Notes under the pieces: generated by a model
What the model was told of the DNA's origin: nothing
Database searches by the model: none
What the model saw: only the letters and a program-made list of their open reading frames with translations
Shown: positions 1,461-37,879 of the stretch, one piece after another
Layout of the letters: each line of letters opens with the position of its first letter
Numbering within the stretch: position 1 is the stretch's first letter
Program-made: the position numbers and the translations under genes
Assembly (NCBI RefSeq): GCF_963921235.1
Contig: NC_086097.1
Span: forward strand, 168,146,001-168,210,000
Reading direction: 5' to 3'
Source: Mobula hypostoma
Taxonomy: Eukaryota
DNA length: 64,000 nt

Positions 1461-1645
1461 AAAACAACAGGAATTCTGCAGATGCTGGAAATTCAAGCAA
1501 CACACATAAAAGTTGCTGGTGAACGCAGCAGGCCAGGCAGCATCTCTAGGAAGAGGTGCAGTCGATGTTTCAGGCCCAGACCCTTCATCAGGACCTCTTC
1601 CTAGAGATGCTGCCTGGCCTGCTGCGTTCACCAGCAACTTTTATG
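1461..1645. mobile_element. PLE-derived fold-back mini-element #1
   Basis: Perfect 53-bp inverted arms 1505..1557 / 1593..1645 with a 35-nt spacer; TSD caggatgtat(a/g)tt at 1448..1460 / 1646..1658; arms match the PLE 3' terminus at 39030..39125. Confidence 0.85.
1561..1594 (-). ncRNA. Minimal type I hammerhead ribozyme-like motif (also at 12711..12744)
   Basis: Minus strand GTC-CTGATGA-AGG gtctggg CCT-GAAA-CA-TC-GAC: core boxes, stem I GTC/GAC, stem II AGG/CCT. The stem III CG has decayed to CA. Confidence 0.6.
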
Positions 1646-1884
1646 CAGGATGTATGTTGTATACATTTCTCTGACATTAAATGTACCTTTGAAACCTCTG
1701 ACATGTTTGAGTTAATAAAAAGTGTGGCACATTTTTTTCCTTCAGAGCAGCACATGGTTTCTTTGTAAAAGGCAAGACAATTGAGTTTAAAAAAAGGCAG
1801 AAAAAAGATTAATTTCATAGGTTCATAAACAGAGAGTACTGAGTGATCATAATCATAAATAAATCATGCCATCCGAGTGCAATC

Positions 1885-2221
1885 CGGGTCATATTATGAT
1901 CGAGGAACATGTTTGTAGACTGGATATTGAACTTTTTACTGGTGGACTTCGGCCATATTCCGCCGAGGTACAACACAAGGCGGCACGGGAGGTCGTTCCT
2001 GCCTGTGGCCATCGAACTTGCAGCTGGAGGGTCAGACACCCTGAGCCAATAGACTGGTCCTGGACTTATTTTCCATCTGGCATAGTTTGCAGTTTGTTGT
2101 TTGATTGTTTGTGGCTTTTGTATTGCTATATTTATGCTCTATTTTTGGTTGGTGCAGCTGTAACGAAACCCAATTTCCCTCGGGATCAATAAAGTATATC
2201 TATCTATCTATCTATCTATCT
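1885..2221 (+). mobile_element. Short non-LTR/SINE-like repeat with Rex1/L2-type tail and (CTAT)n (copy at 13035..13371)
   Basis: Ends aatttccctcgggatcaataaagta(tcta)n. Confidence 0.55.
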
Positions 2222-2234
2222 AAAAAAAGCAGAA

Positions 2235-4370
2235 ATAGCTGGCTACATTGGAAAGATAGTTACATTTGATTGCTCAAGAGATAACTAGATATTGTATACT
2301 GAGTGAATTGAGCAGTATTTTGAAGCAAACTACCTAAGCGAGTGTCAATTTTACAGAGTGTAAAGGTGGAAGAGCATACAGTTTGCTTTGAAGTTTGAAT
2401 GCTTTAACCAAACTAGCCAAAACAAGCTTTACTGATATCATGAAAGTAATGCAGGAAGATATAGAACCAAAACCATTGTTGATTGCAGAATCCTTTAGGT
2501 TTCATAAGCAGAATCACAAGGAAGGGAAGACAATTTCACCTTACACGGCTAAATTGAAGGAAGTGTCTAAGCATTGCCAGTTCAGTAATGGACTTAATGA
2601 TACATTGACAGATTTTTCAGTTTGTGAAATCTTACAAGAAAGCATTCAAGAATGGTTCTCAACTGAAGCACAACTCATTTAAAAGAGCAGGTGAAATTGC
2701 AGTATCAATAGAAATAGTAGACAGAGACACAATTGAGTTGCAGTCAGAAGCGAAAGTGAGAGAGAACAAAATTGCAACAGCTAAATAGAAACTTACCTGG
2801 ACAAACAAATTTTGTTACCATTGTGGCATGGGCTCACATACACCAGACCAATGCAGGTTTAAAGGTGAAACTTACAGAAAATGCAACAAAGTAGAACATA
2901 TACGAGCATTGTGAGGTCATGATTGGGTGAGACAATTACAACTTGATTGGAGTTCTATTCACCACTTGTGTGCTACATCCCCTGCAATAGATTCTACTGA
3001 AAGCAAATTAAGAAATATATTGGATGATGTCACAGTAGTGTTCAAGGATGGTATTGGAAAACTTATACATATAAAGGGTAACATTGTGTTAAATGAAAAT
3101 GCCACTCCCAAGTATTACAAAGCCCATCTGGTTCCTTATACAATCCATGGTAAAGTAGCCAGTGAGCAAGATTGCATGGAGGCAGTAAGAATTCTTTCCA
3201 ACGTTGAGTGGAGCCAATGGGCAATGCCAGTGGTCCCAGTATCCAAGAAGAATGGTTCTGCCAGGCTCTGTGGTGATTTTAAGGTTACCATCAACCCAGT
3301 ACTGAATGTAGATCAATGCCCACTGCCCAGGATAGCGGATATCTTTGAAAACCTTTCTGGAGGAAAAGCAGAAAAGTTAAGTGGATTTATCTGAAGCCTA
3401 CCTACAGATGGAGATGGAAGAAGAATCCAAAGTGTTTCTCACCATAAACACTCACAACGGGCTTTATCACTATAATAGGCTTATATTTGGAGTGGCATCT
3501 GCATCTGCACTCTGGCAGAAAGCTGTGGACCAGGTGCTGCAAGGCTGCCCTGGCACTCAGTGTTACCTGGATGACATCATTGTCATCAATGAAGATGACA
3601 AGGAACATTTCCAAAATCTCAAGACAGTGTTAAAAATTAGAAGATTATGGGCTCAGAGCAGGATGCAACAAGTGTGACTTTTTAAAACCAAGCATCACTT
3701 ACTGTGGTCACATCATTGATGCACAAGGATTACACAAGTGTGCTGAGAAAATTCAAGCAGTGGTGGATGCCTGAATGCCAAAGACAAGTCACAGTTTCGA
3801 TCCATTTTAGGATTTGTTAGTTACTATATCAGATTCCTGCCAAACCTGACTATTTTGCTCCACGCCTTGAACTCATTACTACTGATTGGGTAGAAATGGC
3901 ATTCAAAAGGGTAAAGAAAATGATGACATCAGACACTGCATTCACATATTATGACCATATCATCCTGTGAAGCTTGCCTGTGATGCCTTGCCTTATGATA
4001 TAGGTGTAGTCATGTCACATGATATGAGTGACAGAAAAGTGAACACCCCATAATCTTTGCATCATATTCCTTTACAATCAACAACTAATTTCCATTTTCA
4101 ATCTACAGAAGAGCGTTCCATTAAATGTGCAGCAGAAACTCTAGTCCCCCCCAGTTTGACCAGTGCCAGGATGAACGTGCCCTTGATGGAGGTTGTCTTG
4201 TGTACGGATTGAGAGTTGTTGTGGAATTCAAGCTGAGAGCTAAAGTGTTGTACATGTTGGTCATCTGGGTATGGTCAAAGCTTGGTGTGGTTGCCTGGGA
4301 TAGATCAGCAGATCGTGCAGATTGCCCTGCACTGTTCGGGCTGCCAACAAGACCGGAAGATGCCAGGAGC
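2235..4370 (+). pseudogene. Gypsy gag-pol remnant (gag, zinc knuckle, RT, RNase H/integrase fragments)
   Basis: EPKPLLIAESFRFHK (gag); PVVPVSKKNGSARLCGDFKVTIN, DLSEAYLQ and YLDDIIV (RT); VWLPGIDQQI...C..CQ (integrase zinc-binding part). Confidence 0.88.
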
Positions 4371-4861
4371 ATCTAGGAGAAGCAAAAAGAAAGGAGAACA
4401 ATGGTGTCCTAAGCTGTCAGAACCAGCTTCTGCAGGCCCAGAGTCAACTGTAAATATATGGTTTTAATTCAGCATTCTCTGTTTAAATAATTCATTATGG
4501 GCTATACGTAAACGTACTTAAAAGGCATATGTAATTACATCACCATGTCATAAGTGTGCGTCTTGCTAAAGTAAAAATAAAACTAGGCACAAGTTATCCC
4601 CAGCTCTCCCGTGTTTTTTTTCTTGCAATTAATTTTTGGAGTTACCAAACATAACACTTCGTATACTCACCACCACTTCATCTCCTCCTTCTCCAGGGAA
4701 ATTAGAGTTGGTCAATAGATGCTGAGCTAACCAGTGAGGGCAACACCCTGAAAATGAACAATGAAAATCTGTCCAATATCCACAAGGAACTGTAGTGATA
4801 GATGTAAGAAAGCACAATGGTATGCCAGGTGGTGTGACTGTTTCCTCGATCCAATACATAC

Positions 4862-5190
4862 AACATTGAACATAGAAATCTACAGCACATTACAGGCCCT
4901 TCTGCCCACAATGTTATGATGACCATGTAACCTACTCTAAAAACTACTTTGAATTACCCTACTGTGTAGCCTCTATTTTTCTAAGTTCTCTTAAAAGACA
5001 ATATTGTATCCACCTCTACCACTGTTGCTGGCAGTGCATTGCACACACTCACCAGTCTGTATGTGAAAAACTTACCTCTGACATTCCCTCAGTACCTACT
5101 TTCAAGCACCTTAAAACTATACCCCCTTCTGTTAGCCATTTCAGCCCTGGGAAAAAGCCTCTGGCTATCCACACGACCAATGCCTCTCAT
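4862..5190 (-). mobile_element. CR1 LINE 3' fragment (copy at 16012..16340)
   Basis: Similar to the CR1 3' end at 6602..6930 (gcaccttaaaact...gccatttcagccctggga). Confidence 0.7.
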
Positions 5191-6126
5191 CAGCTTGCGA
5201 TTCATTCTAAAGTTGTCTATGTGTGCAGTTTGCACATTCTCCCAGTGCTTTTGCTTCCTCCGACATTCCAGAAAACATACCCATTATTCCGCTAATTGGT
5301 TATTGTAAATTACCCCCAATATATGCAGCAGTTGGAGGGAATGAGTGGGGTGGGTTGTTAACGGGGCATGTGTGAGAGAATAGGGTATCAGGAAAATAAA
5401 TAGGGGAATAGGGATGGGATTGGCCTGTGTACTAGAAATGTCCTGATGAACCAAATAGCTTCCTTGTGTATCATCAAGAAATATGAAAAGTACATGCCAT
5501 TACAGACGAGGAACCACAATCAGAAACTGAACAGATTTTTGTTCCCTCTTTTCCTCTCATCTGTTAGCAGCTCCCATGAAAAGGATTTTACAACAGGAGC
5601 AGTTTAACAGATCAATGACTAAATTGGCAAGTTTGATTTGTCCATTTATACTGTTTGCGTCGACATGTTTCCTTGTCATTCAAAGTGAATACATAATATG
5701 TGGGATCTGAATTTCGTCAGCCAGCCTGCCTTTCCTGCTGATTCTGCATTCAATGGATTTATTGTTTCAATGAGGCAACAGAGAAGCAGCTGCTTCTTTT
5801 GGTGGGTGCACAGCTATTTGAAAAACCGCATTAACAGCTTTACAAATAATCATTATTACCTCCATAGAAGTTTACACTCTGCTAATGCCGTTCATTAATA
5901 TGGATAGGAGTGGACAACTGATGTTGTCCAAGATGGACATAGAATATCCTTAGGAGCAGTTTGAAAGAAGAGGAGGGTTCTCAGCCAATATTTATCACTA
6001 TATTTTCAATCAATATCGCCAAATAGAGAGTATCACATCACATTGTGGGAGCTTTCTGCTCAAAATAATGAAATAAACCACATTGATTTGTTTTCCTTAA
6101 AAACTAAAGTATGTCATTAGCTGGAA

Positions 6127-6320
6127 CACACATCAAAGTTGCTGGTGAACACAGCAGGCCAGGCAGCATCTCTAGGAAGAGGTACAGTCGACGTTTCAGG
6201 CCGAGACCCTCTTGGCCTGAAACGTCGACTGTACCTCTTCCTAGAGATGCTGCCTGGCCTGCTGCGTTCACCAGCAACTTTGATGTGTGTTGCTTGAATT
6301 TCCAGCATCTGCAGAATTCC
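6127..6320. mobile_element. PLE-derived fold-back mini-element #2
   Basis: 78-bp arms 6125..6202 / 6214..6291 with one mismatch and an 11-nt loop; TSD tgtcattag(c/t)tggaa at 6112..6126 / 6321..6335. Confidence 0.88.
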
Positions 6321-6601
6321 TGTCATTAGTTGGAAAATGCTTTAGGACATCAAAGGTTAAAAAGAAGTGCAAGGAGAGGATCACTGTTTAAATATAGTGG
6401 ATCAATCACTGAAAACAGAAATGAGGTGAAACTTTTGTCATTCACAGGGGCATAAGGCTTTGGAACTTCCTGAGATCCAGAGATAATATATGTTTATCAT
6501 ATTGTGTTACATTGCTGGCACCAGCTAGAATAATATTTAGCCAGTAAAATTTAGGCAAGAGAGATGGAAATGCTCCTGGATTCAGCTGTTTCGAGCGGTT
6601 G

Positions 6602-7325
6602 TTAGAAACATAGAAAACCCACAGCACAATACAGGCCTATGCTGGACATGTACTTACTTTAGAAATTACCTAGGGTTACCCATAGCCCTCTGTTTTACTG
6701 AGCTCCATATACCTGTCCAGGAGTCTCTTAAAAGACCCTATTGTATCCACCTCCACCACCGTCGATGGCAGCCCATTCCATGCACTCACCACTCTCTGCG
6801 TAAAAACTTACCCCTGACATCTCCTCTGTACCTATTTCCAAGCACCTTAAAACTGTGCCCTCTCATGTTAGCCATTTCAGCCCTGGGAGAAAGCCTCTGA
6901 CTACCCACACGATCAATGCCTCTCATCATCTTATACAGGTCAACTCTCATCCTCCGCCACTCCAAGGAGAAAAGGCTGAGTTCACTCAACCTGTTATCGT
7001 AAGGCATGCTCCCCAATCCAGGCAACGTCCTTGTAAATCTCCTTTGCACCCTTTCTATAGTTGCCACATCTTTCCTGTAGTGAGGTGACCAGAACTGAGC
7101 ACAGTACTCCAAGTGGGGTCTGACCAGGGTCCTATATAATTGTAACATTACCCTTTTGCTCCTAAACTCAATCCCACGGTTGATTAAGGCCAATGCATCG
7201 TATGCCTTCTTAACCACAGAGTCAACCTGTGCAGCAGCTTTGAGTGTCCTATGGACTTGGACCCTAAGATCCCTCTGATCCTCCACACTGCCAAGAGTCT
7301 TACCATTAATACTGTATTCTGTCAA
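6602..7325 (-). mobile_element. CR1 LINE 3' fragment (ORF2 C-terminus)
   Basis: LQLYRTLVRPHLEYCAQFWSPHYRKDVATIERVQRRFTR motif; (ttctatg)-type tail. Confidence 0.9.
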
Positions 7326-7529
7326 TGAAGCACTTAATCTTGTTCTGGATTATTATTTTGAGGCCTAGACTAAAACATGAGTTCAAATTGAACACTGGCA
7401 GCTGGGAAATTAAAATTCAATGAACTAAATCTGTAATTAAAGCAAGAAAGCCGGCTTCAGTAATGATGACTACAAGACTGACAGTAAAACCCCATACTGA
7501 ATGAAAGTGACTCCAGATTCACAGCAGTT

Positions 7530-8040
7530 AGGTTGTGAGTCAAGGAGGAGGTACTGGACTTGAGGATACACACTCAACATTTTAGGAACAGCTTTTATTT
7601 ATTTATTTGTTGATATGCTGCACGAAATAGGCCCTTTGAGCCACACTGCCCAGCAACCCCTCCCCCGGACGTCATCCGAGCCTAATCATGCGACAATTTA
7701 CAATGGCCAATTAACCTACTAATTGGTATGCCTTTGAACTGTGGGAGGAAACCCATGCAGTCATGTGGAGAATATACAGGCAATGGCAGAAATTGATCCC
7801 GGGTCATTGGTACTGTAAAACATTGTACTAATGCCTATGCTACCATGCCACCCCATTTTCCTTCAGATTTCTAAACAGTTCATGAACACTACCCCACTAT
7901 TTTCCTCTCTTTTTGCACTATTTATTTATTATACTGTAGTTTCTTATCGCTTTTATTTGTTTTACATTGTACTGCTGCCACAAAACAACAAATTTCATGG
8001 TTTGTGTCAGTGATAATAAACCTGATTCTGATTCTGAATC
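7530..8040 (+). mobile_element. Rex1/Babar 3' tail interrupted by a minus-strand V-SINE-like insert (~7615..7855); copy at +11150
   Basis: ttttaggaacagcttt...tcagatttctaaac...gataataaacctgattctgattctga tail; insert has gtgggaggaaacc and caatttacaatggccaattaacc. Confidence 0.55.
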
Positions 8041-8060
8041 ACTGGCCCCCATCACCCTGT

Positions 8061-8360
8061 CTCAATAGACAATAGACAATAAGTGCAGGAGTAGGCCATT
8101 CGGCCCTTTGAGCCAGCGCCGCCATTCACTGTGATCATGGCTGATCATCCACAATCAGTATCCAGTTCCTGCCTTATCCCCATAACCTTTGATTCCACTA
8201 TCTTTAAGAGCTCTATCCATCTCTTTCTTGAAAGCATCCAGAGACTTGGCCTCCACAGCCTTCTGGGGCAGAGCATTCCATATATCCACCACTCTCTGGG
8301 TGAAAAAGTTTTTCCTCAACTCCATTCTAAATGGCCTACCCCTTATTCTTAAACTGTGGC
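8061..8360 (-). mobile_element. CR1 LINE 3' end (copy at 19211..19510)
   Basis: GHSLRIRGRPFRMELRKNFFTQRVVDIWNALP; (ctattgt)n tail. Confidence 0.88.
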
Positions 8361-8745
8361 CTCCTCCCCCTCTCCAGCTGCTCATCAGCCACACACCCTC
8401 CCTTTGGTTCCCTTCCTCACCTTCTTTCCTTAATTCAGCTGTCCACCGTCTTCTCCTAAAGAGATTTCATTTTCTTCAGTCCTTTGTCACTTCCACCCCT
8501 CAGCTCCAAGCTTCTTACCACATTCCCATTGTCCCCTCTCCTTCACCTGCCTATCATCCTCCCCTCACCTGGATCCACCTATCACCTGCTTCACTCTGCC
8601 CTCCCACCAATGTATAGAGGCTATCTCTCTTCTTCCTCTCCAGTCTGAATGAAAGACCTCGACTCAAAATGTTGCCTGTACTTTTCCCACCACAAATACT
8701 GCCAGAACTTCCTGAGCTCCTCCAGCTCCTTTGAATGTTGCTCAG
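8361..8745 (+). mobile_element. Old PLE 3'-UTR fragment (copy at +11150)
   Basis: Pyrimidine-rich tract followed by a degenerate hammerhead/tail, similar to 38745..39125. Confidence 0.55.
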
Positions 8746-10239
8746 AAGAAGGTACATCAGGTCTGAGCAGAATGAGTCACAGAGTCAGAGAACACTACAA
8801 CACAGAAACTGGCATTTTGTCCAAGTCAGACTATTACTCTGTCTAGTTTCATTGATTGTATCCAGACCCCTTCATACCCCTCAATGCCCCTCAGAGGGTT
8901 TTGGGAAGATCTGAGCGGAGGTCAAACTGGTCGGAGTGGACCTTTAGAATTCTGGCCTCTGAACGAGATCACCTTGGACTTTGGCCCCTGTGATCTAATT
9001 CACACCCATCACCTCTTTAAATGCTAATTGATTTAGATATGCAACAACTTAATTGCCCGAGATTTCAAAGGCCTCCATGATTTCAGTGCTTCTTTATCCA
9101 CCTACTCCCACCCAGCTTAAAAACTCCTTAGGATGTCTGTGCTTCTTCAAGCCAGGCCTCCCGTCTATTCCTGAATTGACCTGATCTACGTGTGGGAACT
9201 GTTGTGTTGTTGGAGGCTGTAATTCACTCCCTAAACTTCTCAGCTTCTCTAGTTTACTTTACAAAAATAGCTGCCACTTTCTAGAAAGGACTGAAGAAGG
9301 GTCTTAGCCTGAAATGGCAACTGTTCACTTCCCTCCATAGATGCTGTCTGACACTTAGGTTCCTCCACCTTTTTGAGTGTTGTTCTTTTGAAGAAATCTT
9401 TGGATTATTTTAAAGACCAAAACTGCTGCTGAGACTGGACATCTGAAATAAAAATTTAAAAATGTTGAAAACACCCAAAGTTCAAAATTCAAAGTAAATA
9501 TATTGTTTAAGTACGTAAATGACACCACGTACAACCTTGAGATTCTTCTTTTTTTGCAGGCATACTCGATAAATCCAATAACCATAATAGAACCAATGAA
9601 AGACCACACCAACTGGGCACTCAACCAGTGTGCAAAAGACTACAAGCTGTGCAAATACAAAAATAATGGAGAAATAATAACAATAATTATTATAAATAAG
9701 CAATAAATATCAAGAACATGAGATGAAGAGTCCTTGAAAATGAGCTTAACAGGTTTGTTACCCAGACATGGAAAGAGAAACAGAGTTAGTGTTTCAGGCT
9801 GGAGCCATTTTGTCAGAACTGGTACAGAGACGAAATTAGTTCATTTTAATTTGATGCGGTGCGGCGATAGTTGAGGGATGAAGGAAATATCACAGAAAGG
9901 GCAAAGCCAAGCCTGTACTGGGGATAAGCTACTGATGAAGTCATCTGATTGATATACCGACATTTCTGTTCATAAAAAGAACCATAGATGCTGGAAATTT
10001 GAAATAAAAACAGGAAATGCTGGCATCCGTGCAGAGAGAAACAGTTAATGCCTCAGCTCAGATTACTGTTTCTCCAGGTGCTGCCTGGCCCACTGACCAT
10101 TATGAGCATTTAGTATTTTTACTTCAGCTCTCTATTTGCATATGGGCTTGGGGTCAGGTCAACACTGGATGATACTTGGCCCTTATTTCCTTTAATGGCT
10201 ACAATTTTCTATATTTCCCAAATCCTGATGGGACATTTA

Positions 10240-11010
10240 GTGGAAATAGCACATTAGGAGCACTGATGCACAGGGAAACATTGGAGTGTGTCCATAGCTC
10301 CCTGAATGCGTCAGCAAAGGTGGATAAGGTGATGTGGAAGGCATTTCGTATGACCGCCTTCATAGGCCGAGGCACTAATTCTAAGAGTTAGGATATCATG
10401 TTGCAGTTGTATAAAACATTGCTCAGATTGCATTTGGAGTATTGTGTATAATTTTGACAACCACACCATAGACAGCAATAAAGAAAATGTGGAAGATTTA
10501 GGAACACTTTCTTTCCCTTTGCCATCAGATTTCTGAATGGTCTATGAGCCAATGAAAACTCCCCTATTACTCCTGCGTTTACCTCTATTTATTTATCCTT
10601 CAAATGTACAGATTTTATGTATTGCTGCCACAAAATAACAAATTACATGTCATATATCAGTGATAATGAACTTGATTCTGATTTCGAGAAGATTTGCCAG
10701 AATGTTGCCTGGTTGTAATAACAAGGAGAGATCAGATAGTCTGTTTATTCTCACTGGAGCATAGGGGACCAAGGAGTAATCTTATAGAGATTTATAAAAT
10801 CATGAAGGGCAAATATAGGATAGGCAGTCAGAATATTGTATTTCACAGAGCAGGGAAATGTAGAGGTTGCAGGCACAGGTTTGAGATAAGATGGGAGAAA
10901 GGGTAATTTTTTTCACACAGAAGTGCTGGTTATATGGAATGATCGACTAAAGGAGGTTGTGGAGTCAGATACTATTACAACAGTTAGCAGGCATTTGGCT
11001 GGCAGATGGC
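10240..11010 (+). mobile_element. Degenerate CR1 3' fragment with an inserted Rex1/Babar tail (copy at +11150)
   Basis: KVDKVM.KAF.M.AFIGRG and LFSLEHRG.RSNLIEIYKIMKG remnants. Confidence 0.65.
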
Positions 11011-11199
11011 ATTAGTAGATTTGAATTAGTAGATAATGTGTTTGGTTTATCATTGCTAAATGTACCAAGATACAGTGAAAAGCTTGTCTTGCTTGCTGTT
11101 TATATAAATCGTTACACAGTGCATTGAGGTAGAACAAGGTAAATCAATAACAATGCAGAATAATGTCTTCAGAGAAAGTGCAGAGCAGTAAACAATAAA

Positions 11200-11760
11200 A
11201 TGAAGGTCAGATCATAACGCGGTAGATCGTGGGTTCAAAGTCCGTCTTATCGTTGGCCAATGTGCTATATCCGGATAATTTGCTTTGCTGTGGGGATACT
11301 GTACCTGTCGAGAAGGCGCTGCATAAGCGGCGGTTGTTGTTGTTAAGCATCGACGCACGCTAGAGTGCAGCAGAGAGAGAGGAAGAGTGTTGGTGTGTGT
11401 GCTGATAGACTCGGGCCACCCATCCGCAGTCCAGCGCAGCAGAGGAGCGGATCGGTCAGCGTGCAGGGGGATGGCGGGGTTGGAAGAGAAGGACAGCGAG
11501 CAGCTGCTGAAGCAGTGTCTCCACGCGGCGGTAGAGGTGGCGTTGGAGGCCGGTCAGGTGAGCGTTCAGGTGTCCCGGGTTTCCGGTGGGCGGATAGACG
11601 GGCCACTTCACGCAGTGGCAGCCCAGGCGCCTTTAATCCAACTATGTACTTCAGGAGATTAATCTTATATTCAACGGCACATACACATTCTTGTTAGTTT
11701 GCAGCGGGGGGGGGGGCTGGTGTGGCGGATGGCTTTATTTTTCTTCTACATCGGGAGCTG
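11200..11760 (+). promoter_or_regulatory. Duplicated CpG-rich promoter/5'UTR of IMPA2 (copy a)
   Basis: Copy of the promoter above at offset 11150, with an extra 9 bp at 11589..11597. Confidence 0.65.
11471..11557 (+). CDS. IMPA2: Identical duplicate of IMPA2 coding exon 1 (upstream copy, 1a)
   Basis: Same sequence as 22621..22707 at offset 11150, with ATG and CAG|GTGAGC donor intact. Confidence 0.8.
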
Positions 11761-12565
11761 TTTTGTAATCCGAAATTATAAAAAAAATTAAGCTAGCTTC
11801 TGTTCCGTTTTCTAGACGGACGGTTGGTTAATAATAACGAAAAAGTTTGATTATATTGCTGAAAACCAGCCTTGTATTAACCATCTACTAGGCCGGAAGG
11901 GGGGATGGGGAGTTTGTAAAAGGAACCGCTCGTACGTTATACTGTGTGTCTTTGACATTTCGAAGAATCTTGTGGGGTTGAACTATTTTTGGTGAGGTTG
12001 CTTTCAGATGTTTAGCACCCTTCAATCCACGTTTCTGTAACATATTTGTTGAAAATACAAACAGGAAGTACGCTAAAGTACCTGTTTTAACAAGAATGCC
12101 GTGTACTGCTGTTACCTCGATTGGCTAAGGCGAGCCTTAGACTGATGAATGTCATCAGGACCTTGAGATCATACTGCACCATGTTCGTAGTGTGCTGGTT
12201 TCTACGCCTGTTCTGAACTACAATCACATTGGCGGTGCTGTAATCTGTTGCATAATTATTCTTCTTTGAAACCCTAATGACTATAAGGCAATAAACTGAA
12301 GTCTTATGGCAGAATTCTGATCAGCAAGTATAAATTGGTAGCGGTGAGAAAACTTTATGATTCCGGAACAGGCGCGATGGCTACAGAAATGTGGGTGTGA
12401 GTGGAAGAGAAAGGGCAGAGGTTTTAAGATGTTACGGAGTAAATGCACAGAAAAATGCTTCCACTTAGAGGGCGTCAGAAGAGCAAGAGTCATCATGGGG
12501 GAAAAACGTCTTCAGTCTGAGAGTGGTTTCAGTTAAGACTGCCTGCCCCATGGACGAGTTTGGAA

Positions 12566-12661
12566 ATAAAACATTTAATGTCAGAGAAATGTATACAACA
12601 TACATCCTGCATAAAACATTTAATGTCAGAGAAATGTATACAACATACATCCTGCATAAAA
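12566..12661 (-). repeat. Duplication junction: two tandem 45-bp units, inverted copies of 1639..1684 / 12789..12834
   Basis: ataaaacatttaatgtcagagaaatgtatacaacatacatcctgc twice (12566..12610, 12611..12655); reverse complement of ttttatgcaggatgtatgttgtatacatttctctgacattaaatgt. Confidence 0.95.
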
Positions 12662-13384
12662 GTTGCTGGTGAACGCAGCAGGCCAGGCAGCATCTCTAGG
12701 AAGAGGTGCAGTCGATGTTTCAGGCCCAGACCCTTCATCAGGACCTCTTCCTAGAGATGCTGCCTGGCCTGCTGCGTTCACCAGCAACTTTTATGCAGGA
12801 TGTATGTTGTATACATTTCTCTGACATTAAATGTACCTTTGAAACCTCTGACATGTTTGAGTTAATAAAAAGTGTGGCACATTTTTTTCCTTCAGAGCAG
12901 CACATGGTTTCTTTGTAAAAGGCAAGACAATTGAGTTTAAAAAAAGGCAGAAAAAAGATTAATTTCATAGGTTCATAAACAGAGAGTACTGAGTGATCAT
13001 AATCATAAATAAATCATGCCATCCGAGTGCAATCCGGGTCATATTATGATCGAGGAACATGTTTGTAGACTGGATATTGAACTTTTTACTGGTGGACTTC
13101 GGCCATATTCCGCCGAGGTACAACACAAGGCGGCACGGGAGGTCGTTCCTGCCTGTGGCCATCGAACTTGCAGCTGGAGGGTCAGACACCCTGAGCCAAT
13201 AGACTGGTCCTGGACTTATTTTCCATCTGGCATAGTTTGCAGTTTGTTGTTTGATTGTTTGTGGCTTTTGTATTGCTATATTTATGCTCTATTTTTGGTT
13301 GGTGCAGCTGTAACGAAACCCAATTTCCCTCGGGATCAATAAAGTATATCTATCTATCTATCTATCTATCTAAAAAAAGCAGAA

Positions 13385-15806
13385 ATAGCTGGCTACATTG
13401 GAAAGATAGTTACATTTGATTGCTCAAGAGATAACTAGATATTGTATACTGAGTGAATTGAGCAGTATTTTGAAGCAAACTACCTAAGCGAGTGTCAATT
13501 TTACAGAGTGTAAAGGTGGAAGAGCATACAGTTTGCTTTGAAGTTTGAATGCTTTAACCAAACTAGCCAAAACAAGCTTTACTGATATCATGAAAGTAAT
13601 GCAGGAAGATATAGAACCAAAACCATTGTTGATTGCAGAATCCTTTAGGTTTCATAAGCAGAATCACAAGGAAGGGAAGACAATTTCACCTTACACGGCT
13701 AAATTGAAGGAAGTGTCTAAGCATTGCCAGTTCAGTAATGGACTTAATGATACATTGACAGATTTTTCAGTTTGTGAAATCTTACAAGAAAGCATTCAAG
13801 AATGGTTCTCAACTGAAGCACAACTCATTTAAAAGAGCAGGTGAAATTGCAGTATCAATAGAAATAGTAGACAGAGACACAATTGAGTTGCAGTCAGAAG
13901 CGAAAGTGAGAGAGAACAAAATTGCAACAGCTAAATAGAAACTTACCTGGACAAACAAATTTTGTTACCATTGTGGCATGGGCTCACATACACCAGACCA
14001 ATGCAGGTTTAAAGGTGAAACTTACAGAAAATGCAACAAAGTAGAACATATACGAGCATTGTGAGGTCATGATTGGGTGAGACAATTACAACTTGATTGG
14101 AGTTCTATTCACCACTTGTGTGCTACATCCCCTGCAATAGATTCTACTGAAAGCAAATTAAGAAATATATTGGATGATGTCACAGTAGTGTTCAAGGATG
14201 GTATTGGAAAACTTATACATATAAAGGGTAACATTGTGTTAAATGAAAATGCCACTCCCAAGTATTACAAAGCCCATCTGGTTCCTTATACAATCCATGG
14301 TAAAGTAGCCAGTGAGCAAGATTGCATGGAGGCAGTAAGAATTCTTTCCAACGTTGAGTGGAGCCAATGGGCAATGCCAGTGGTCCCAGTATCCAAGAAG
14401 AATGGTTCTGCCAGGCTCTGTGGTGATTTTAAGGTTACCATCAACCCAGTACTGAATGTAGATCAATGCCCACTGCCCAGGATAGCGGATATCTTTGAAA
14501 ACCTTTCTGGAGGAAAAGCAGAAAAGTTAAGTGGATTTATCTGAAGCCTACCTACAGATGGAGATGGAAGAAGAATCCAAAGTGTTTCTCACCATAAACA
14601 CTCACAACGGGCTTTATCACTATAATAGGCTTATATTTGGAGTGGCATCTGCATCTGCACTCTGGCAGAAAGCTGTGGACCAGGTGCTGCAAGGCTGCCC
14701 TGGCACTCAGTGTTACCTGGATGACATCATTGTCATCAATGAAGATGACAAGGAACATTTCCAAAATCTCAAGACAGTGTTAAAAATTAGAAGATTATGG
14801 GCTCAGAGCAGGATGCAACAAGTGTGACTTTTTAAAACCAAGCATCACTTACTGTGGTCACATCATTGATGCACAAGGATTACACAAGTGTGCTGAGAAA
14901 ATTCAAGCAGTGGTGGATGCCTGAATGCCAAAGACAAGTCACAGTTTCGATCCATTTTAGGATTTGTTAGTTACTATATCAGATTCCTGCCAAACCTGAC
15001 TATTTTGCTCCACGCCTTGAACTCATTACTACTGATTGGGTAGAAATGGCATTCAAAAGGGTAAAGAAAATGATGACATCAGACACTGCATTCACATATT
15101 ATGACCATATCATCCTGTGAAGCTTGCCTGTGATGCCTTGCCTTATGATATAGGTGTAGTCATGTCACATGATATGAGTGACAGAAAAGTGAACACCCCA
15201 TAATCTTTGCATCATATTCCTTTACAATCAACAACTAATTTCCATTTTCAATCTACAGAAGAGCGTTCCATTAAATGTGCAGCAGAAACTCTAGTCCCCC
15301 CCAGTTTGACCAGTGCCAGGATGAACGTGCCCTTGATGGAGGTTGTCTTGTGTACGGATTGAGAGTTGTTGTGGAATTCAAGCTGAGAGCTAAAGTGTTG
15401 TACATGTTGGTCATCTGGGTATGGTCAAAGCTTGGTGTGGTTGCCTGGGATAGATCAGCAGATCGTGCAGATTGCCCTGCACTGTTCGGGCTGCCAACAA
15501 GACCGGAAGATGCCAGGAGCATCTAGGAGAAGCAAAAAGAAAGGAGAACAATGGTGTCCTAAGCTGTCAGAACCAGCTTCTGCAGGCCCAGAGTCAACTG
15601 TAAATATATGGTTTTAATTCAGCATTCTCTGTTTAAATAATTCATTATGGGCTATACGTAAACGTACTTAAAAGGCATATGTAATTACATCACCATGTCA
15701 TAAGTGTGCGTCTTGCTAAAGTAAAAATAAAACTAGGCACAAGTTATCCCCAGCTCTCCCGTGTTTTTTTTCTTGCAATTAATTTTTGGAGTTACCAAAC
15801 ATAACA
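13385..15806 (+). mobile_element. Duplicated part of the old Gypsy element (gag-pol remnant + 3' LTR, no 5' LTR)
   Basis: Copy of 2235..4656 at +11150. Confidence 0.85.
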
Positions 15807-17276
15807 CTTCGTATACTCACCACCACTTCATCTCCTCCTTCTCCAGGGAAATTAGAGTTGGTCAATAGATGCTGAGCTAACCAGTGAGGGCAACACCCTG
15901 AAAATGAACAATGAAAATCTGTCCAATATCCACAAGGAACTGTAGTGATAGATGTAAGAAAGCACAATGGTATGCCAGGTGGTGTGACTGTTTCCTCGAT
16001 CCAATACATACAACATTGAACATAGAAATCTACAGCACATTACAGGCCCTTCTGCCCACAATGTTATGATGACCATGTAACCTACTCTAAAAACTACTTT
16101 GAATTACCCTACTGTGTAGCCTCTATTTTTCTAAGTTCTCTTAAAAGACAATATTGTATCCACCTCTACCACTGTTGCTGGCAGTGCATTGCACACACTC
16201 ACCAGTCTGTATGTGAAAAACTTACCTCTGACATTCCCTCAGTACCTACTTTCAAGCACCTTAAAACTATACCCCCTTCTGTTAGCCATTTCAGCCCTGG
16301 GAAAAAGCCTCTGGCTATCCACACGACCAATGCCTCTCATCAGCTTGCGATTCATTCTAAAGTTGTCTATGTGTGCAGTTTGCACATTCTCCCAGTGCTT
16401 TTGCTTCCTCCGACATTCCAGAAAACATACCCATTATTCCGCTAATTGGTTATTGTAAATTACCCCCAATATATGCAGCAGTTGGAGGGAATGAGTGGGG
16501 TGGGTTGTTAACGGGGCATGTGTGAGAGAATAGGGTATCAGGAAAATAAATAGGGGAATAGGGATGGGATTGGCCTGTGTACTAGAAATGTCCTGATGAA
16601 CCAAATAGCTTCCTTGTGTATCATCAAGAAATATGAAAAGTACATGCCATTACAGACGAGGAACCACAATCAGAAACTGAACAGATTTTTGTTCCCTCTT
16701 TTCCTCTCATCTGTTAGCAGCTCCCATGAAAAGGATTTTACAACAGGAGCAGTTTAACAGATCAATGACTAAATTGGCAAGTTTGATTTGTCCATTTATA
16801 CTGTTTGCGTCGACATGTTTCCTTGTCATTCAAAGTGAATACATAATATGTGGGATCTGAATTTCGTCAGCCAGCCTGCCTTTCCTGCTGATTCTGCATT
16901 CAATGGATTTATTGTTTCAATGAGGCAACAGAGAAGCAGCTGCTTCTTTTGGTGGGTGCACAGCTATTTGAAAAACCGCATTAACAGCTTTACAAATAAT
17001 CATTATTACCTCCATAGAAGTTTACACTCTGCTAATGCCGTTCATTAATATGGATAGGAGTGGACAACTGATGTTGTCCAAGATGGACATAGAATATCCT
17101 TAGGAGCAGTTTGAAAGAAGAGGAGGGTTCTCAGCCAATATTTATCACTATATTTTCAATCAATATCGCCAAATAGAGAGTATCACATCACATTGTGGGA
17201 GCTTTCTGCTCAAAATAATGAAATAAACCACATTGATTTGTTTTCCTTAAAAACTAAAGTATGTCATTAGCTGGAA

Positions 17277-17470
17277 CACACATCAAAGTTGCTGGTGAAC
17301 ACAGCAGGCCAGGCAGCATCTCTAGGAAGAGGTACAGTCGACGTTTCAGGCCGAGACCCTCTTGGCCTGAAACGTCGACTGTACCTCTTCCTAGAGATGC
17401 TGCCTGGCCTGCTGCGTTCACCAGCAACTTTGATGTGTGTTGCTTGAATTTCCAGCATCTGCAGAATTCC
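17277..17470. mobile_element. Duplicated copy of fold-back mini-element #2
   Basis: Copy of 6127..6320 at +11150. Confidence 0.88.
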
Positions 17471-17751
17471 TGTCATTAGTTGGAAAATGCTTTAGGACAT
17501 CAAAGGTTAAAAAGAAGTGCAAGGAGAGGATCACTGTTTAAATATAGTGGATCAATCACTGAAAACAGAAATGAGGTGAAACTTTTGTCATTCACAGGGG
17601 CATAAGGCTTTGGAACTTCCTGAGATCCAGAGATAATATATGTTTATCATATTGTGTTACATTGCTGGCACCAGCTAGAATAATATTTAGCCAGTAAAAT
17701 TTAGGCAAGAGAGATGGAAATGCTCCTGGATTCAGCTGTTTCGAGCGGTTG

Positions 17752-18475
17752 TTAGAAACATAGAAAACCCACAGCACAATACAGGCCTATGCTGGACATG
17801 TACTTACTTTAGAAATTACCTAGGGTTACCCATAGCCCTCTGTTTTACTGAGCTCCATATACCTGTCCAGGAGTCTCTTAAAAGACCCTATTGTATCCAC
17901 CTCCACCACCGTCGATGGCAGCCCATTCCATGCACTCACCACTCTCTGCGTAAAAACTTACCCCTGACATCTCCTCTGTACCTATTTCCAAGCACCTTAA
18001 AACTGTGCCCTCTCATGTTAGCCATTTCAGCCCTGGGAGAAAGCCTCTGACTACCCACACGATCAATGCCTCTCATCATCTTATACAGGTCAACTCTCAT
18101 CCTCCGCCACTCCAAGGAGAAAAGGCTGAGTTCACTCAACCTGTTATCGTAAGGCATGCTCCCCAATCCAGGCAACGTCCTTGTAAATCTCCTTTGCACC
18201 CTTTCTATAGTTGCCACATCTTTCCTGTAGTGAGGTGACCAGAACTGAGCACAGTACTCCAAGTGGGGTCTGACCAGGGTCCTATATAATTGTAACATTA
18301 CCCTTTTGCTCCTAAACTCAATCCCACGGTTGATTAAGGCCAATGCATCGTATGCCTTCTTAACCACAGAGTCAACCTGTGCAGCAGCTTTGAGTGTCCT
18401 ATGGACTTGGACCCTAAGATCCCTCTGATCCTCCACACTGCCAAGAGTCTTACCATTAATACTGTATTCTGTCAA
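17752..18475 (-). mobile_element. Duplicated CR1 3' fragment
   Basis: Copy of 6602..7325 at +11150. Confidence 0.9.
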
Positions 18476-21400
18476 TGAAGCACTTAATCTTGTTCTGGAT
18501 TATTATTTTGAGGCCTAGACTAAAACATGAGTTCAAATTGAACACTGGCAGCTGGGAAATTAAAATTCAATGAACTAAATCTGTAATTAAAGCAAGAAAG
18601 CCGGCTTCAGTAATGATGACTACAAGACTGACAGTAAAACCCCATACTGAATGAAAGTGACTCCAGATTCACAGCAGTTAGGTTGTGAGTCAAGGAGGAG
18701 GTACTGGACTTGAGGATACACACTCAACATTTTAGGAACAGCTTTTATTTATTTATTTGTTGATATGCTGCACGAAATAGGCCCTTTGAGCCACACTGCC
18801 CAGCAACCCCTCCCCCGGACGTCATCCGAGCCTAATCATGCGACAATTTACAATGGCCAATTAACCTACTAATTGGTATGCCTTTGAACTGTGGGAGGAA
18901 ACCCATGCAGTCATGTGGAGAATATACAGGCAATGGCAGAAATTGATCCCGGGTCATTGGTACTGTAAAACATTGTACTAATGCCTATGCTACCATGCCA
19001 CCCCATTTTCCTTCAGATTTCTAAACAGTTCATGAACACTACCCCACTATTTTCCTCTCTTTTTGCACTATTTATTTATTATACTGTAGTTTCTTATCGC
19101 TTTTATTTGTTTTACATTGTACTGCTGCCACAAAACAACAAATTTCATGGTTTGTGTCAGTGATAATAAACCTGATTCTGATTCTGAATCACTGGCCCCC
19201 ATCACCCTGTCTCAATAGACAATAGACAATAAGTGCAGGAGTAGGCCATTCGGCCCTTTGAGCCAGCGCCGCCATTCACTGTGATCATGGCTGATCATCC
19301 ACAATCAGTATCCAGTTCCTGCCTTATCCCCATAACCTTTGATTCCACTATCTTTAAGAGCTCTATCCATCTCTTTCTTGAAAGCATCCAGAGACTTGGC
19401 CTCCACAGCCTTCTGGGGCAGAGCATTCCATATATCCACCACTCTCTGGGTGAAAAAGTTTTTCCTCAACTCCATTCTAAATGGCCTACCCCTTATTCTT
19501 AAACTGTGGCCTCCTCCCCCTCTCCAGCTGCTCATCAGCCACACACCCTCCCTTTGGTTCCCTTCCTCACCTTCTTTCCTTAATTCAGCTGTCCACCGTC
19601 TTCTCCTAAAGAGATTTCATTTTCTTCAGTCCTTTGTCACTTCCACCCCTCAGCTCCAAGCTTCTTACCACATTCCCATTGTCCCCTCTCCTTCACCTGC
19701 CTATCATCCTCCCCTCACCTGGATCCACCTATCACCTGCTTCACTCTGCCCTCCCACCAATGTATAGAGGCTATCTCTCTTCTTCCTCTCCAGTCTGAAT
19801 GAAAGACCTCGACTCAAAATGTTGCCTGTACTTTTCCCACCACAAATACTGCCAGAACTTCCTGAGCTCCTCCAGCTCCTTTGAATGTTGCTCAGAAGAA
19901 GGTACATCAGGTCTGAGCAGAATGAGTCACAGAGTCAGAGAACACTACAACACAGAAACTGGCATTTTGTCCAAGTCAGACTATTACTCTGTCTAGTTTC
20001 ATTGATTGTATCCAGACCCCTTCATACCCCTCAATGCCCCTCAGAGGGTTTTGGGAAGATCTGAGCGGAGGTCAAACTGGTCGGAGTGGACCTTTAGAAT
20101 TCTGGCCTCTGAACGAGATCACCTTGGACTTTGGCCCCTGTGATCTAATTCACACCCATCACCTCTTTAAATGCTAATTGATTTAGATATGCAACAACTT
20201 AATTGCCCGAGATTTCAAAGGCCTCCATGATTTCAGTGCTTCTTTATCCACCTACTCCCACCCAGCTTAAAAACTCCTTAGGATGTCTGTGCTTCTTCAA
20301 GCCAGGCCTCCCGTCTATTCCTGAATTGACCTGATCTACGTGTGGGAACTGTTGTGTTGTTGGAGGCTGTAATTCACTCCCTAAACTTCTCAGCTTCTCT
20401 AGTTTACTTTACAAAAATAGCTGCCACTTTCTAGAAAGGACTGAAGAAGGGTCTTAGCCTGAAATGGCAACTGTTCACTTCCCTCCATAGATGCTGTCTG
20501 ACACTTAGGTTCCTCCACCTTTTTGAGTGTTGTTCTTTTGAAGAAATCTTTGGATTATTTTAAAGACCAAAACTGCTGCTGAGACTGGACATCTGAAATA
20601 AAAATTTAAAAATGTTGAAAACACCCAAAGTTCAAAATTCAAAGTAAATATATTGTTTAAGTACGTAAATGACACCACGTACAACCTTGAGATTCTTCTT
20701 TTTTTGCAGGCATACTCGATAAATCCAATAACCATAATAGAACCAATGAAAGACCACACCAACTGGGCACTCAACCAGTGTGCAAAAGACTACAAGCTGT
20801 GCAAATACAAAAATAATGGAGAAATAATAACAATAATTATTATAAATAAGCAATAAATATCAAGAACATGAGATGAAGAGTCCTTGAAAATGAGCTTAAC
20901 AGGTTTGTTACCCAGACATGGAAAGAGAAACAGAGTTAGTGTTTCAGGCTGGAGCCATTTTGTCAGAACTGGTACAGAGACGAAATTAGTTCATTTTAAT
21001 TTGATGCGGTGCGGCGATAGTTGAGGGATGAAGGAAATATCACAGAAAGGGCAAAGCCAAGCCTGTACTGGGGATAAGCTACTGATGAAGTCATCTGATT
21101 GATATACCGACATTTCTGTTCATAAAAAGAACCATAGATGCTGGAAATTTGAAATAAAAACAGGAAATGCTGGCATCCGTGCAGAGAGAAACAGTTAATG
21201 CCTCAGCTCAGATTACTGTTTCTCCAGGTGCTGCCTGGCCCACTGACCATTATGAGCATTTAGTATTTTTACTTCAGCTCTCTATTTGCATATGGGCTTG
21301 GGGTCAGGTCAACACTGGATGATACTTGGCCCTTATTTCCTTTAATGGCTACAATTTTCTATATTTCCCAAATCCTGATGGGACATTTAGTGGAAATAGC

Positions 21401-22349
21401 ACATTAGGAGCACTGATGCACAGGGAAACATTGGAGTGTGTCCATAGCTCCCTGAATGCGTCAGCAAAGGTGGATAAGGTGATGTGGAAGGCATTTCGTA
21501 TGACCGCCTTCATAGGCCGAGGCACTAATTCTAAGAGTTAGGATATCATGTTGCAGTTGTATAAAACATTGCTCAGATTGCATTTGGAGTATTGTGTATA
21601 ATTTTGACAACCACACCATAGACAGCAATAAAGAAAATGTGGAAGATTTAGGAACACTTTCTTTCCCTTTGCCATCAGATTTCTGAATGGTCTATGAGCC
21701 AATGAAAACTCCCCTATTACTCCTGCGTTTACCTCTATTTATTTATCCTTCAAATGTACAGATTTTATGTATTGCTGCCACAAAATAACAAATTACATGT
21801 CATATATCAGTGATAATGAACTTGATTCTGATTTCGAGAAGATTTGCCAGAATGTTGCCTGGTTGTAATAACAAGGAGAGATCAGATAGTCTGTTTATTC
21901 TCACTGGAGCATAGGGGACCAAGGAGTAATCTTATAGAGATTTATAAAATCATGAAGGGCAAATATAGGATAGGCAGTCAGAATATTGTATTTCACAGAG
22001 CAGGGAAATGTAGAGGTTGCAGGCACAGGTTTGAGATAAGATGGGAGAAAGGGTAATTTTTTTCACACAGAAGTGCTGGTTATATGGAATGATCGACTAA
22101 AGGAGGTTGTGGAGTCAGATACTATTACAACAGTTAGCAGGCATTTGGCTGGCAGATGGCATTAGTAGATTTGAATTAGTAGATAATGTGTTTGGTTTAT
22201 CATTGCTAAATGTACCAAGATACAGTGAAAAGCTTGTCTTGCTTGCTGTTTATATAAATCGTTACACAGTGCATTGAGGTAGAACAAGGTAAATCAATAA
22301 CAATGCAGAATAATGTCTTCAGAGAAAGTGCAGAGCAGTAAACAATAAA

Positions 22350-22900
22350 ATGAAGGTCAGATCATAACGCGGTAGATCGTGGGTTCAAAGTCCGTCTTAT
22401 CGTTGGCCAATGTGCTATATCCGGATAATTTGCTTTGCTGTGGGGATACTGTACCTGTCGAGAAGGCGCTGCATAAGCGGCGGTTGTTGTTGTTAAGCAT
22501 CGACGCACGCTAGAGTGCAGCAGAGAGAGAGGAAGAGTGTTGGTGTGTGTGCTGATAGACTCGGGCCACCCATCCGCAGTCCAGCGCAGCAGAGGAGCGG
22601 ATCGGTCAGCGTGCAGGGGGATGGCGGGGTTGGAAGAGAAGGACAGCGAGCAGCTGCTGAAGCAGTGTCTCCACGCGGCGGTAGAGGTGGCGTTGGAGGC
22701 CGGTCAGGTGAGCGTTCAGGTGTCCCGGGTTTCCGGTGACGGGCCACTTCACGCAGTGGCAGCCCAGGCGCCTTTAATCCAACTATGTACTTCAGGAGAT
22801 TAATCTTATATTCAACGGCACATACACATTCTTGTTAGTTTGCAGCGGGGGGGGGGGCTGGTGTGGCGGATGGCTTTATTTTTCTTCTACATCGGGAGCT
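22350..22900 (+). promoter_or_regulatory. CpG-rich promoter/5'UTR of IMPA2 (copy b)
   Basis: Local high density of CpG against a CpG-depleted background around exon 1; GGCCAAT box near 22405; edges approximate. Confidence 0.7.
22621..22707 (+). CDS. IMPA2: Inositol monophosphatase 2, coding exon 1 (downstream copy, 1b)
   Basis: ATG in a CpG-rich context; encodes MAGLEEKDSEQLLKQCLHAAVEVALEAGQ, resembling the IMPA2 N-terminus (..ECFQAAVQLALRAGQ); strong donor CAG|GTGAGC, phase 0. Confidence 0.9.
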
Positions 22901-23717
22901 GTTTTGTAATCCGAAATTATAAAAAAAATTAAGCTAGCTTCTGTTCCGTTTTCTAGACGGACGGTTGGTTAATAATAACGAAAAAGTTTGATTATATTGC
23001 TGAAAACCAGCCTTGTATTAACCATCTACTAGGCCGGAAGGGGGGATGGGGAGTTTGTAAAAGGAACCGCTCGTACGTTATACTGTGTGTCTTTGACATT
23101 TCGAAGAATCTTGTGGGGTTGAACTATTTTTGGTGAGGTTGCTTTCAGATGTTTAGCACCCTTCAATCCACGTTTCTGTAACATATTTGTTGAAAATACA
23201 AACAGGAAGTACGCTAAAGTACCTGTTTTAACAAGAATGCCGTGTACTGCTGTTACCTCGATTGGCTAAGGCGAGCCTTAGACTGATGAATGTCATCAGG
23301 ACCTTGAGATCATACTGCACCATGTTCGTAGTGTGCTGGTTTCTACGCCTGTTCTGAACTACAATCACATTGGCGGTGCTGTAATCTGTTGCATAATTAT
23401 TCTTCTTTGAAACCCTAATGACTATAAGGCAATAAACTGAAGTCTTATGGCAGAATTCTGATCAGCAAGTATAAATTGGTAGCGGTGAGAAAACTTTATG
23501 ATTCCGGAACAGGCGCGATGGCTACAGAAATGTGGGTGTGAGTGGAAGAGAAAGGGCAGAGGTTTTAAGATGTTACGGAGTAAATGCACAGAAAAATGCT
23601 TCCACTTAGAGGGCGTCAGAAGAGCAAGAGTCATCATGGGGGAAAAACGTCTTCAGTCTGAGAGTGGTTTCAGTTAAGACTGCCTGCCCCATGGACGAGT
23701 TTGGAAATAAAACGTTC

Positions 23718-23868
23718 AAAAACAAGAGAAAATCTGCAGGTGTTGGAAATCCAAGCAACACGCACAAAATGCTGGAGGAATTCAGCAGGCTGAACGGTCT
23801 CTGCTCGGCTCTTTTCCATGGATGCTGCCCGGCCTGTGGAGTTCCTCCGGCATTTTGTGTGTGTCGCC
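23718..23868. mobile_element. Older PLE-derived fold-back mini-element at the right duplication breakpoint
   Basis: Imperfect arms ~23755..23792 / ~23830..23867; degenerate TSD ggaaataaaac / ggaaacaatac (23703..23713 / 23870..23880). Confidence 0.7.
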
Positions 23869-29330: not shown

Positions 29331-29971
29331 GGGCTTGTCCTGTGCTGTACTGTTCTATTAATGGGTTCCTCTTGTGCAGTTGCCATTCTGTGAGCTCATG
29401 TGCTTCAAAATTCTTGCATGTTTTACTTCTCAATCCTTGAAAAGCAGCTATAGGGATATTAGCTGTGTTTCTCACTTTGTGGCATTATCAGCTTCCTGTG
29501 TCAGCAGCTTGTCAGGCAAAAATTATTGAAAGGGTAAACATGCAAGATCAACCAATAGCAGACACCATCGGGTTCACACTTGCAGCACCGTGCGAAAGAT
29601 AAACAAGCAAATACAAAGATCGAGATTTGTCTGGTATTAACAGCATCTGTTTTGAGGTAAATGTATCCTTGAGAGATTTTGATATTTATAATTCTTTTGC
29701 CTGGCAAAATGTTATGAATTGAAACTAGCAAAATTGCAATGAGGCTTGTGAAATTAACACTTCAGTTTCTGAAGGTAGATCTATTAAGGCATAATTAAAT
29801 ATCAAACATTGAAGGAAATGGAGAGGTAAAGAAAGAGGAGGGACATATGGAGGGATCACAGCAGAGGCACCTTATAGTTATTAAACAAATTAAAGGTGTG
29901 CATGACTTTTTATGCATTTGAGAGATGTGGGCTTCACAGGCTAATCCATCAATAATTTGCTCATTCCTAAT

Positions 29972-37875: not shown

Positions 37876-37879
37876 CTTA

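Follow-up and report, generated by a model that had tools for sequence, protein, structure and literature searches.

Introduction

The described rearrangements closest to the locus reported here are those of the DUP-TRP/INV-DUP class, in which an inverted triplication lies within a duplication. Excerpts of the published work place them at the MECP2 and PLP1 loci (PMC11293582, PMC4352052) and count 349 instances in cancer genomes (PMC7025897). The order proposed in excerpts of the locus studies has two steps, with a first junction (Jct1) in a repeat and a second (Jct2) formed by microhomology, often accompanied by templated insertions (PMC4352052, PMC11293582). Template switches of the four-point type 1-4-3-2 and quasi-palindrome correction (PMC5453318) operate at shorter range. 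A further relevant system is the complex insertion left by EN+ Penelope-like elements, for which parts of two reports describe an inverted truncated copy, a 30-40-bp tail, and a hammerhead in the pLTR (PMC8557442, PMC11167929).

Here we analyze the seam of an 11-kb tandem duplication in a 64,000-nt window (the whole stretch of DNA that was analyzed). Judged by its sequence, this seam has the DUP-TRP/INV-DUP architecture in miniature. A search of the open literature by title, supplements excluded, returned no paper in which Penelope hairpins give rise to rearrangements of this type.

An 11-kb tandem duplication joined by an inverted, doubled insert

The duplication is head-to-tail: 1505-12572 recurs at 12655-23713, with 11,059 identical bases and a single 9-nt indel. 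Identity is exact between 12655-22738 and 1505-11588 (10,084 nt), and past the indel the match resumes to 12572 and 23713, respectively. The parts of the duplication and of its seam are as follows.

1505..12572, plus strand: copy 1, with the ancestral 9-nt allele at 11589-11597
12566..12661, plus strand: 45-nt tandem doubling, bordered by three ATAAAA motifs at 12566, 12611, and 12656
12571..12616, minus strand: first templated piece in inverted orientation (46 nt), equal to the reverse complement of 1684..1639
12616..12707, minus strand: left arm of the 92-bp inverted repeat, reverse complement of 1684..1593
12708..12742, plus strand: loop, 35 nt, in the same orientation as in the original
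12743..12834, plus strand: right arm of the 92-bp inverted repeat, equal to 1593-1684
12655..23713, plus strand: copy 2, matching copy 1 apart from a derived deletion of 9 nt after about 22737

Exact-match mapping resolved the 82 nt between the copies into the reverse complement of 1639-1684, present twice, and reproduced every seam coordinate of an initial annotation made from the letters alone. The first join carries a 2-nt microhomology, AC (12571-12572), common to the end of copy 1 and the inverted piece. The insert then repeats with a 45-nt period, 12566-12616 being identical to 12611-12661 (TRF, 2.1 copies, 100% matches). Since these matches are exact over 46, 51, and 92 nt, they are not due to chance.

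The two 92-bp arms are perfect, with no further pairing outward or inward. The initial annotation had this inverted repeat created by the insertion, a view to be qualified: 53 of the 92 bp pre-existed as the hairpin 1505-1557/1593-1645, and thus only 39 bp of arm are new. The stem energy of the hairpin changed from -71 to -119 kcal/mol. In the stem as it would have stood before the doubling, the first base coincides with the last base of the first ATAAAA. The left arm is the inverted triplicated segment, consisting of 39 nt of flank and 53 nt that are indistinguishable from the left arm of the original element, and the inverted-repeat junction, seen in the assembly, is placed somewhere within 12655-12707. 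On the assembled chromosome, 1505-1592 occurs twice, 1593-1638 three times, 1639-1684 four times, and 1685-12572 twice, with all extra copies inverted. The sequence immediately left of the first join and that around the 9-nt indel occur in copy 1 and copy 2 only.

Comparison with known rearrangements

The locus combines an inverted triplication inside a duplication, one junction in an inverted repeat, a second at 2-nt microhomology with a 45-nt doubling, and a gain in copy number. Read on the minus strand, it runs from a normal copy through an inverted-repeat switch, a short inverted segment, and a microhomology switch into the second copy. Like the DUP-TRP/INV-DUP cases in the excerpts cited above, it has an inverted extra copy inside a duplication, added templated complexity, and a small deletion elsewhere in the gain. 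It differs in its repeat pair, which is 53 bp around a 35-nt loop, whereas the cases described in these excerpts involve either low-copy repeats (LCRs) many kb long or pairs of Alu elements; in its inverted piece, which measures 39-92 nt, the smallest case compared having ~254 bp; and in its flanks, since one of the two duplicated flanks is reduced to the loop (35-88 nt). The repeat pair also comes from a single Penelope insertion, the genome is non-human, and no gene was found in the gain.

The seam likewise resembles the four-point type 1-4-3-2 and quasi-palindrome correction, as portrayed in part of PMC5453318, in that an inverted repeat is lengthened from the opposite flank while the loop keeps its orientation. 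Unlike in that model, the return point lies 11 kb away when measured against a single-copy ancestor, and copy number was gained. The switch points span 10.9 kb against such an ancestor, as opposed to ~230 nt against a hypothetical simple duplication, and the short-range model fits the seam only if a simple duplication came first.

Templated insertions made by polymerase theta usually have their template no more than tens of bases from the break and are accompanied by deletions. The seam shares with these insertions short inverted iterated copies joined via 1-6-nt homologies, but 10.9 kb separate its ancestral template from the break, and copy number went up. EN+ Penelope-like insertions, as characterized in portions of PMC8557442 and PMC11167929, match the hairpins at 1461-1645 and 23719-23867 and 110 sister copies elsewhere in the genome, but not the seam.

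Penelope-like elements at both ends of the duplication

The initial annotation had overlooked both the Penelope-like nature of the starting hairpin and the presence of a second such element at the far breakpoint. The relevant elements are as follows.

830..1701, plus strand: abundant host repeat, the target of hairpin insertion 1, whose last 56 nt (1646-1701) supply the inverted flank
1461..1645, plus strand: Penelope-like hairpin insertion 1, with a 44-nt tail (1461-1504) and perfect 53-bp arms (1505-1557/1593-1645)
23719..23867, plus strand: older Penelope-like hairpin insertion 2, in the same orientation as insertion 1 and 81% alike over 74 nt
26987-29331, minus strand: decayed Penelope-like element with related ends and a reverse-transcriptase (RT) frame at 27926-29101
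32795-33862, plus strand: inverted partial copy of the decayed element, 78% alike, with a weak GIY-YIG match

Insertion 1 has the predicted make-up of an EN+ Penelope-like insertion, namely an inverted truncated copy, a one-sided tail, and a target-site duplication of 13 bp (1448-1460/1646-1658, 12/13 alike). It resembles (81-85%) the segments 27073-27162 and 29247-29330, the ends that flank the RT frame in the window, and the inverted homologue of this RT element matches GIY-YIG weakly at 33177-33899 (E 5e-4, short of the Pfam cut-off). On its minus strand, the 35-nt loop looks like a decayed hammerhead core with some bases changed; Rfam gave no hammerhead match for the hairpin loop at E up to 1, and its structured-RNA search returned only sub-threshold matches, of which the best, at another element, was to a generic microRNA hairpin. 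Members of the family are very numerous (136,459 first-look candidates), with open frames of up to 750 aa free of stops inside the match and some above 700 aa.

The host repeat is presumably a LINE-like 3' end. The copied flank 1646-1684 is the end of this abundant repeat and not unique (540 first-look candidates, 40 of them scored), and its local origin therefore rests on the join of 1639-1684 into the arm. In another copy of the host repeat, a separate hairpin insertion (L010, G000:C45:95464677) occupies almost the equivalent position; its loop is shorter and it has a target duplication of its own. A preferred target site is possible.

The right end of the duplication, 23713, lies 5 nt before insertion 2 and inside what may be its decayed target-site duplication (23703-23716/23870-23883, 10/14 alike by eye). 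Insertions 1 and 2 align in register, 1461 with 23719, and in a relative (organism B) the contig continues into insertion 2, to 23749. Related pieces number 13 in the 62,859 nt examined, including two other full tails in the same orientation. From this local density, and computed post hoc, such proximity of a breakpoint to an element would arise by chance in ~0.1-0.8% of cases.

A single template-switching event as the favored origin

We consider it probable (roughly 0.7) that the seam arose by replicative template switching in one repair event, with a turn at the Penelope-derived hairpin followed by re-priming 11 kb away on 2 nt. Synthesis running from right to left would have crossed the 53-bp/35-nt hairpin at 1505-1645, stalled, and switched arms, probably by folding back on itself, before extending forward to 1684. 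The end would then have paired with 12571-12572 and re-copied the 11 kb; the related element a little farther on perhaps served as a guide. Finally, during other-strand synthesis over the new 92-bp stem, the polymerase would have been pushed back 45 nt, from the ATAAAA in the stem to that at the stem foot, doubling the unit; re-zipping of the stem would push it back to exactly the ATAAAA at the foot of the stem before doubling. The homologies available to these joins are 53 identical bp at the inverted-repeat junction, 2 nt at the other junction, and 6 nt for the slip, although a 6-nt match between stem foot and arm is common by chance (26% of 2,000 shuffles).

The proposal of the initial annotation that the strand switched templates and returned through the inverted repeat of the element is supported. 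Its sequence of events (a jump 11 kb back, a slip, then the return) is one of two mirror readings, as the product reads equally well from both strands and direction cannot be read from the sequence; the other reading, which puts the hairpin switch before the microhomology jump, has the order published for DUP-TRP/INV-DUP (PMC4352052). Homology counts discriminate only at the dimer. In the direction first proposed, homology at the second landing amounts to 1 nt on the original template, 6 nt being present only on the finished junction, whereas in the opposite direction 6 nt are in common with the original template. Since the 6-nt homology is absent from the original template in the direction first proposed, a fold-back at the hairpin with a later slip fits better, and we give the hairpin-first order somewhat better than even odds within template switching. 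The doubling would be an iterated switch within an event running from right to left or, as the simpler option, a slip once the junction was complete. The direction first proposed is slightly favored by the derived 9-nt deletion in copy 2, which is the newly made copy in that direction and not in the hairpin-first order.

The position of the breakpoint 5 nt from a related element is not by itself explained by template switching. Homeology between the two elements could have guided the landing in a single event, or the duplication could have come first, by recombination between the same-orientation Penelope remnants in the manner of Alu-Alu events, followed by a local switch with the 45-nt slip. 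The local switch, of four-point type 1-4-3-2 and shorter than 250 nt, would have swapped the chimeric tail for the mirrored right flank. This two-step origin is unlikely, if the least so of the alternatives considered. It makes an 11-kb inter-strand jump unnecessary, and the elements are in register and 81% alike over 74 nt, with the ends of the duplication 5 nt outside that register and at least 44 nt inside it and with only two other same-orientation full tails in the 62,859 nt examined; type 1-4-3-2 switches make inverted repeats and, in the part of PMC5453318 that treats them, amount to 31% of human-chimp events. Yet the chimeric tail left no trace, and two rare events would have to hit a single site before even one substitution had accrued in 11 kb, when the second of them is seen in 0 of 110 older sister hairpins.

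Copy gain and age in sequencing runs

We next compared the seam with k-mer contigs from sequencing runs. Runs X1-X4 derive from one sample (organism A) that may be the assembly's own source, and contain 0.86-0.87 of the sampled words; in four runs of the relative, organism B, the share is 0.50. Runs X9-X23, with a share of 0.20 or less, were left out of the contig comparison. In X1 and X2, contigs continue through the first join as far as 12597 with 0 differences, covering the first 25 inserted bases; in X3 and X4, they depart at 12572 along the ordinary path, which they track to 23747. Both paths therefore exist in the sample. No run contig showed the dimer join or the arm-to-loop join, and long contig pieces were lacking at 12598-13170; from k-mer contigs, both observations are uninformative either way. 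A graph containing the dimer join should break at 12595, and the contigs of X1 and X2 stop two bases beyond this point. Cleaning of short low-depth paths from the graph could suffice to explain the loss of the dimer path, since at 12572, too, one of the two real paths is missing from every run. The 45-nt doubling and the arm-to-loop join are thus documented by the assembly alone, in which both junctions lie in cis, none of the k-mer contigs spanning the hairpin. For the 82-nt seam as a whole, which the initial annotation had wished to see in multiple independent reads, the run contigs confirm the first join up to 12597 and leave the dimer join unrecovered.

Depth was length-weighted over the eight contigs listed per run for X1, X3, and X4, bearing in mind that contig depth is not copy number. 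Inside and beyond the duplication, it was 5.86 and 4.79 in X1 (a ratio of 1.22, low when this run is taken alone), 16.06 and 9.41 in X3 (1.71), and 8.42 and 4.44 in X4 (1.90). The summed depths of 30.3 and 18.6 give a ratio of 1.63, against 1.09 in run X8 of the relative. Treated as read counts, these depths are best fitted by a 1.5-fold gain (p 0.70), with a 2-fold gain also compatible (p 0.20). The bin 12874-12940, inside the duplication, had a summed depth of 27.8 compared with 38.0 at the right end of copy 1. The 9 nt missing from copy 2 are present in the relative and in all organism-A contigs shown, from all four runs. Given that the relative has the 9-nt allele and that the runs pick it, as a 2:1 majority would, the deletion is derived, and this allele choice and the depth indicate that the duplication is probably heterozygous.

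The copy gain is real and very recent. Between the copies there are 0 substitutions in 11,059 nt, compared with 82 in 6,052 nt (1.35%) to organism B, and the event is therefore younger than ~2% of the split from this relative. The alternative of a partial assembly or library artefact, whether a false haplotype duplication, a chimera produced by fold-back, or a 45-mer doubled through consensus error, is distinctly unlikely and ranks behind the two-step origin. It draws on this absence of substitutions, on run contigs that show only the first 25 inserted bases, which come from the end of a common repeat, and no dimer join, and on runs that may be the assembly's own source. Against it, the first join occurs in contigs of two separate runs and depth falls ~1.6-fold beyond 23713 in 3/3 organism-A runs compared (1.22-1.90) but not in organism B, a step that a heterozygous insertion without duplication would not give. 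The crossing of the first join and the depth step at the right end bear out the initial view that the duplication is biological and not a mis-join.

The seam hairpin among its sister insertions

Across the 3.48-Gb assembly (200 contigs), the 23-nt dimer join has a single match, and a shorter 24-nt join pattern has three matches, two at the seam and one in a variant repeat end elsewhere. A 45-mer dimer belonging to a repeat consensus, which the initial annotation had named as one of the findings that would overturn its reading, is ruled out by this single match in the assembly and by the 110 sister hairpins surveyed, none of which is extended.

We surveyed all 61 hairpins with the same inner join, the seam copy included, together with the 50 listed of 307 hairpins with shorter loops, the other 257 being left out. 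The longest arm measured 65 bp in the other 60 of the 61 same-join hairpins and 66 bp in the 50 short-loop hairpins; an arm extension like that of the seam was seen in 0/60 and 0/50, respectively, which rules it out as a recurrent trait of these hairpins. Because the arm measure halts at indels, tails were checked as well. All 110 sisters (60 + 50) retain at least part of a tail, including four same-join copies and one short-loop copy whose tails were missed by motif but visible by eye, whereas the seam copy alone of the 61 has an arm above 65 bp and no tail. Two copies, L125 and L139, have tail motifs on both sides. Self-comparison within the 1.2-3-kb loci of the 61 hairpins, in which an 11-kb event would be invisible, gave one match, to a neighboring element piece (L044).

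The 61 same-join hairpins (L005, L006, and L029-L087) are independent insertions with one exact inner join in common, most of them with called target duplications of 12-18 bp. Relative to the tail, the loop points right in 46 and left in 10 by motif, and right in 4 more by eye. Across 50 copies with a target duplication of at least 10 nt, tails start 39-57 nt past the arm, mostly at 40-45 nt. The seam has neither a tail nor a short flanking target duplication and carries host flank instead; lacking an element-derived tail and a short target-site duplication, it does not qualify as an EN+ Penelope-like insertion.

These comparisons bear on whether the machinery of the element itself made the seam: an endonuclease cut at an A/T-rich site next to element 2, an RT that started ~40 nt beyond the arm, where the "tail" normally starts, and copied local read-through RNA, and a cDNA that invaded the arm of element 1 and primed the 11-kb re-copy. 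We regard this as improbable, more so than an artefact. The insert does start 37-39 nt beyond the arm end, near the family tail starts (39-57 nt), and begins with ACA, as do many family tails; the RT is described in part of PMC11167929 as starting internally at sites non-homologous to the cut DNA, with an endonuclease that prefers AT-rich sites; and the family is very abundant, with open frames of up to 750 aa. But the insert start falls just outside the observed tail-start range, no 12-16-bp target duplication or tail is present at the seam, the RNA would fold on itself, and the 6-nt repeat of the dimer would be a coincidence under re-initiation. A DNA-kind search returned no RNA run with the stretch, and present activity would have to be supposed. 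An endonuclease preference for old tails is unsupported as well: a further related piece lies within 25 nt of 2/60 sister insertions, where local density predicts roughly one.

Weakest, and very improbable, is an origin by ODIRA, in which a hairpin-capped intermediate would yield an inverted triplication with palindromic joins that was later trimmed: one junction does form a palindrome interrupted by a short loop, and in part of PMC10766186 the model derives DUP-TRP/INV-DUP via secondary loss of one palindrome, but closely spaced inverted repeats are needed at both junctions and the second has no inverted repeat and 2 nt only, nearly the whole 11-kb inverted copy would have to vanish to leave 39-92 nt, and no replication origin is known at the locus.

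Significance and other features of the window

Under the template-switching origin that we favor, the seam is a one-off scar of a known rearrangement class, a mutation scar with no function implied. Both ends of the duplication sit at Penelope-like elements, and one may ask whether such elements generate structural variants, either via their own RT and cDNA or through leftover hairpins that act as paired start and landing sites. We find this generalization doubtful. If its passive version were true, hundreds to thousands of 50-65-bp hairpins could serve miniature DUP-TRP/INV-DUP events, and the weight of the scar would rise if young duplications genome-wide proved enriched at Penelope hairpins. 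As one allele in one sample, it is well suited to teaching or testing models of fold-back and slippage.

A Pfam scan of 34 of the 46 open frames of at least 70 aa in the duplication (the other 12 frames and all shorter exons being left out) matched no host gene and a single reverse-transcriptase fragment; an intronic position is possible. Within the duplication, the single-locus segment 10001-12000 is rich in CpG (56 per 2 kb, compared with 11-34 in most bins) and is possibly a regulatory island, now doubled. Elsewhere in the window, a young LTR retroelement spans 33946-38738, with 859-bp direct repeats at 33946-34804 and 37880-38738 that are 99.5% alike. The repeats enclose a gag-like frame of 950 aa on the minus strand, in which SCAN and zinc-knuckle domains but no RT were matched. 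Minus-strand fragments of a reverse transcriptase and of an RNase H lie at 43799-44479 and 61406-61897, respectively, and a 32-nt unit is repeated 1.9 times at 550-611, with the copies 86% alike.
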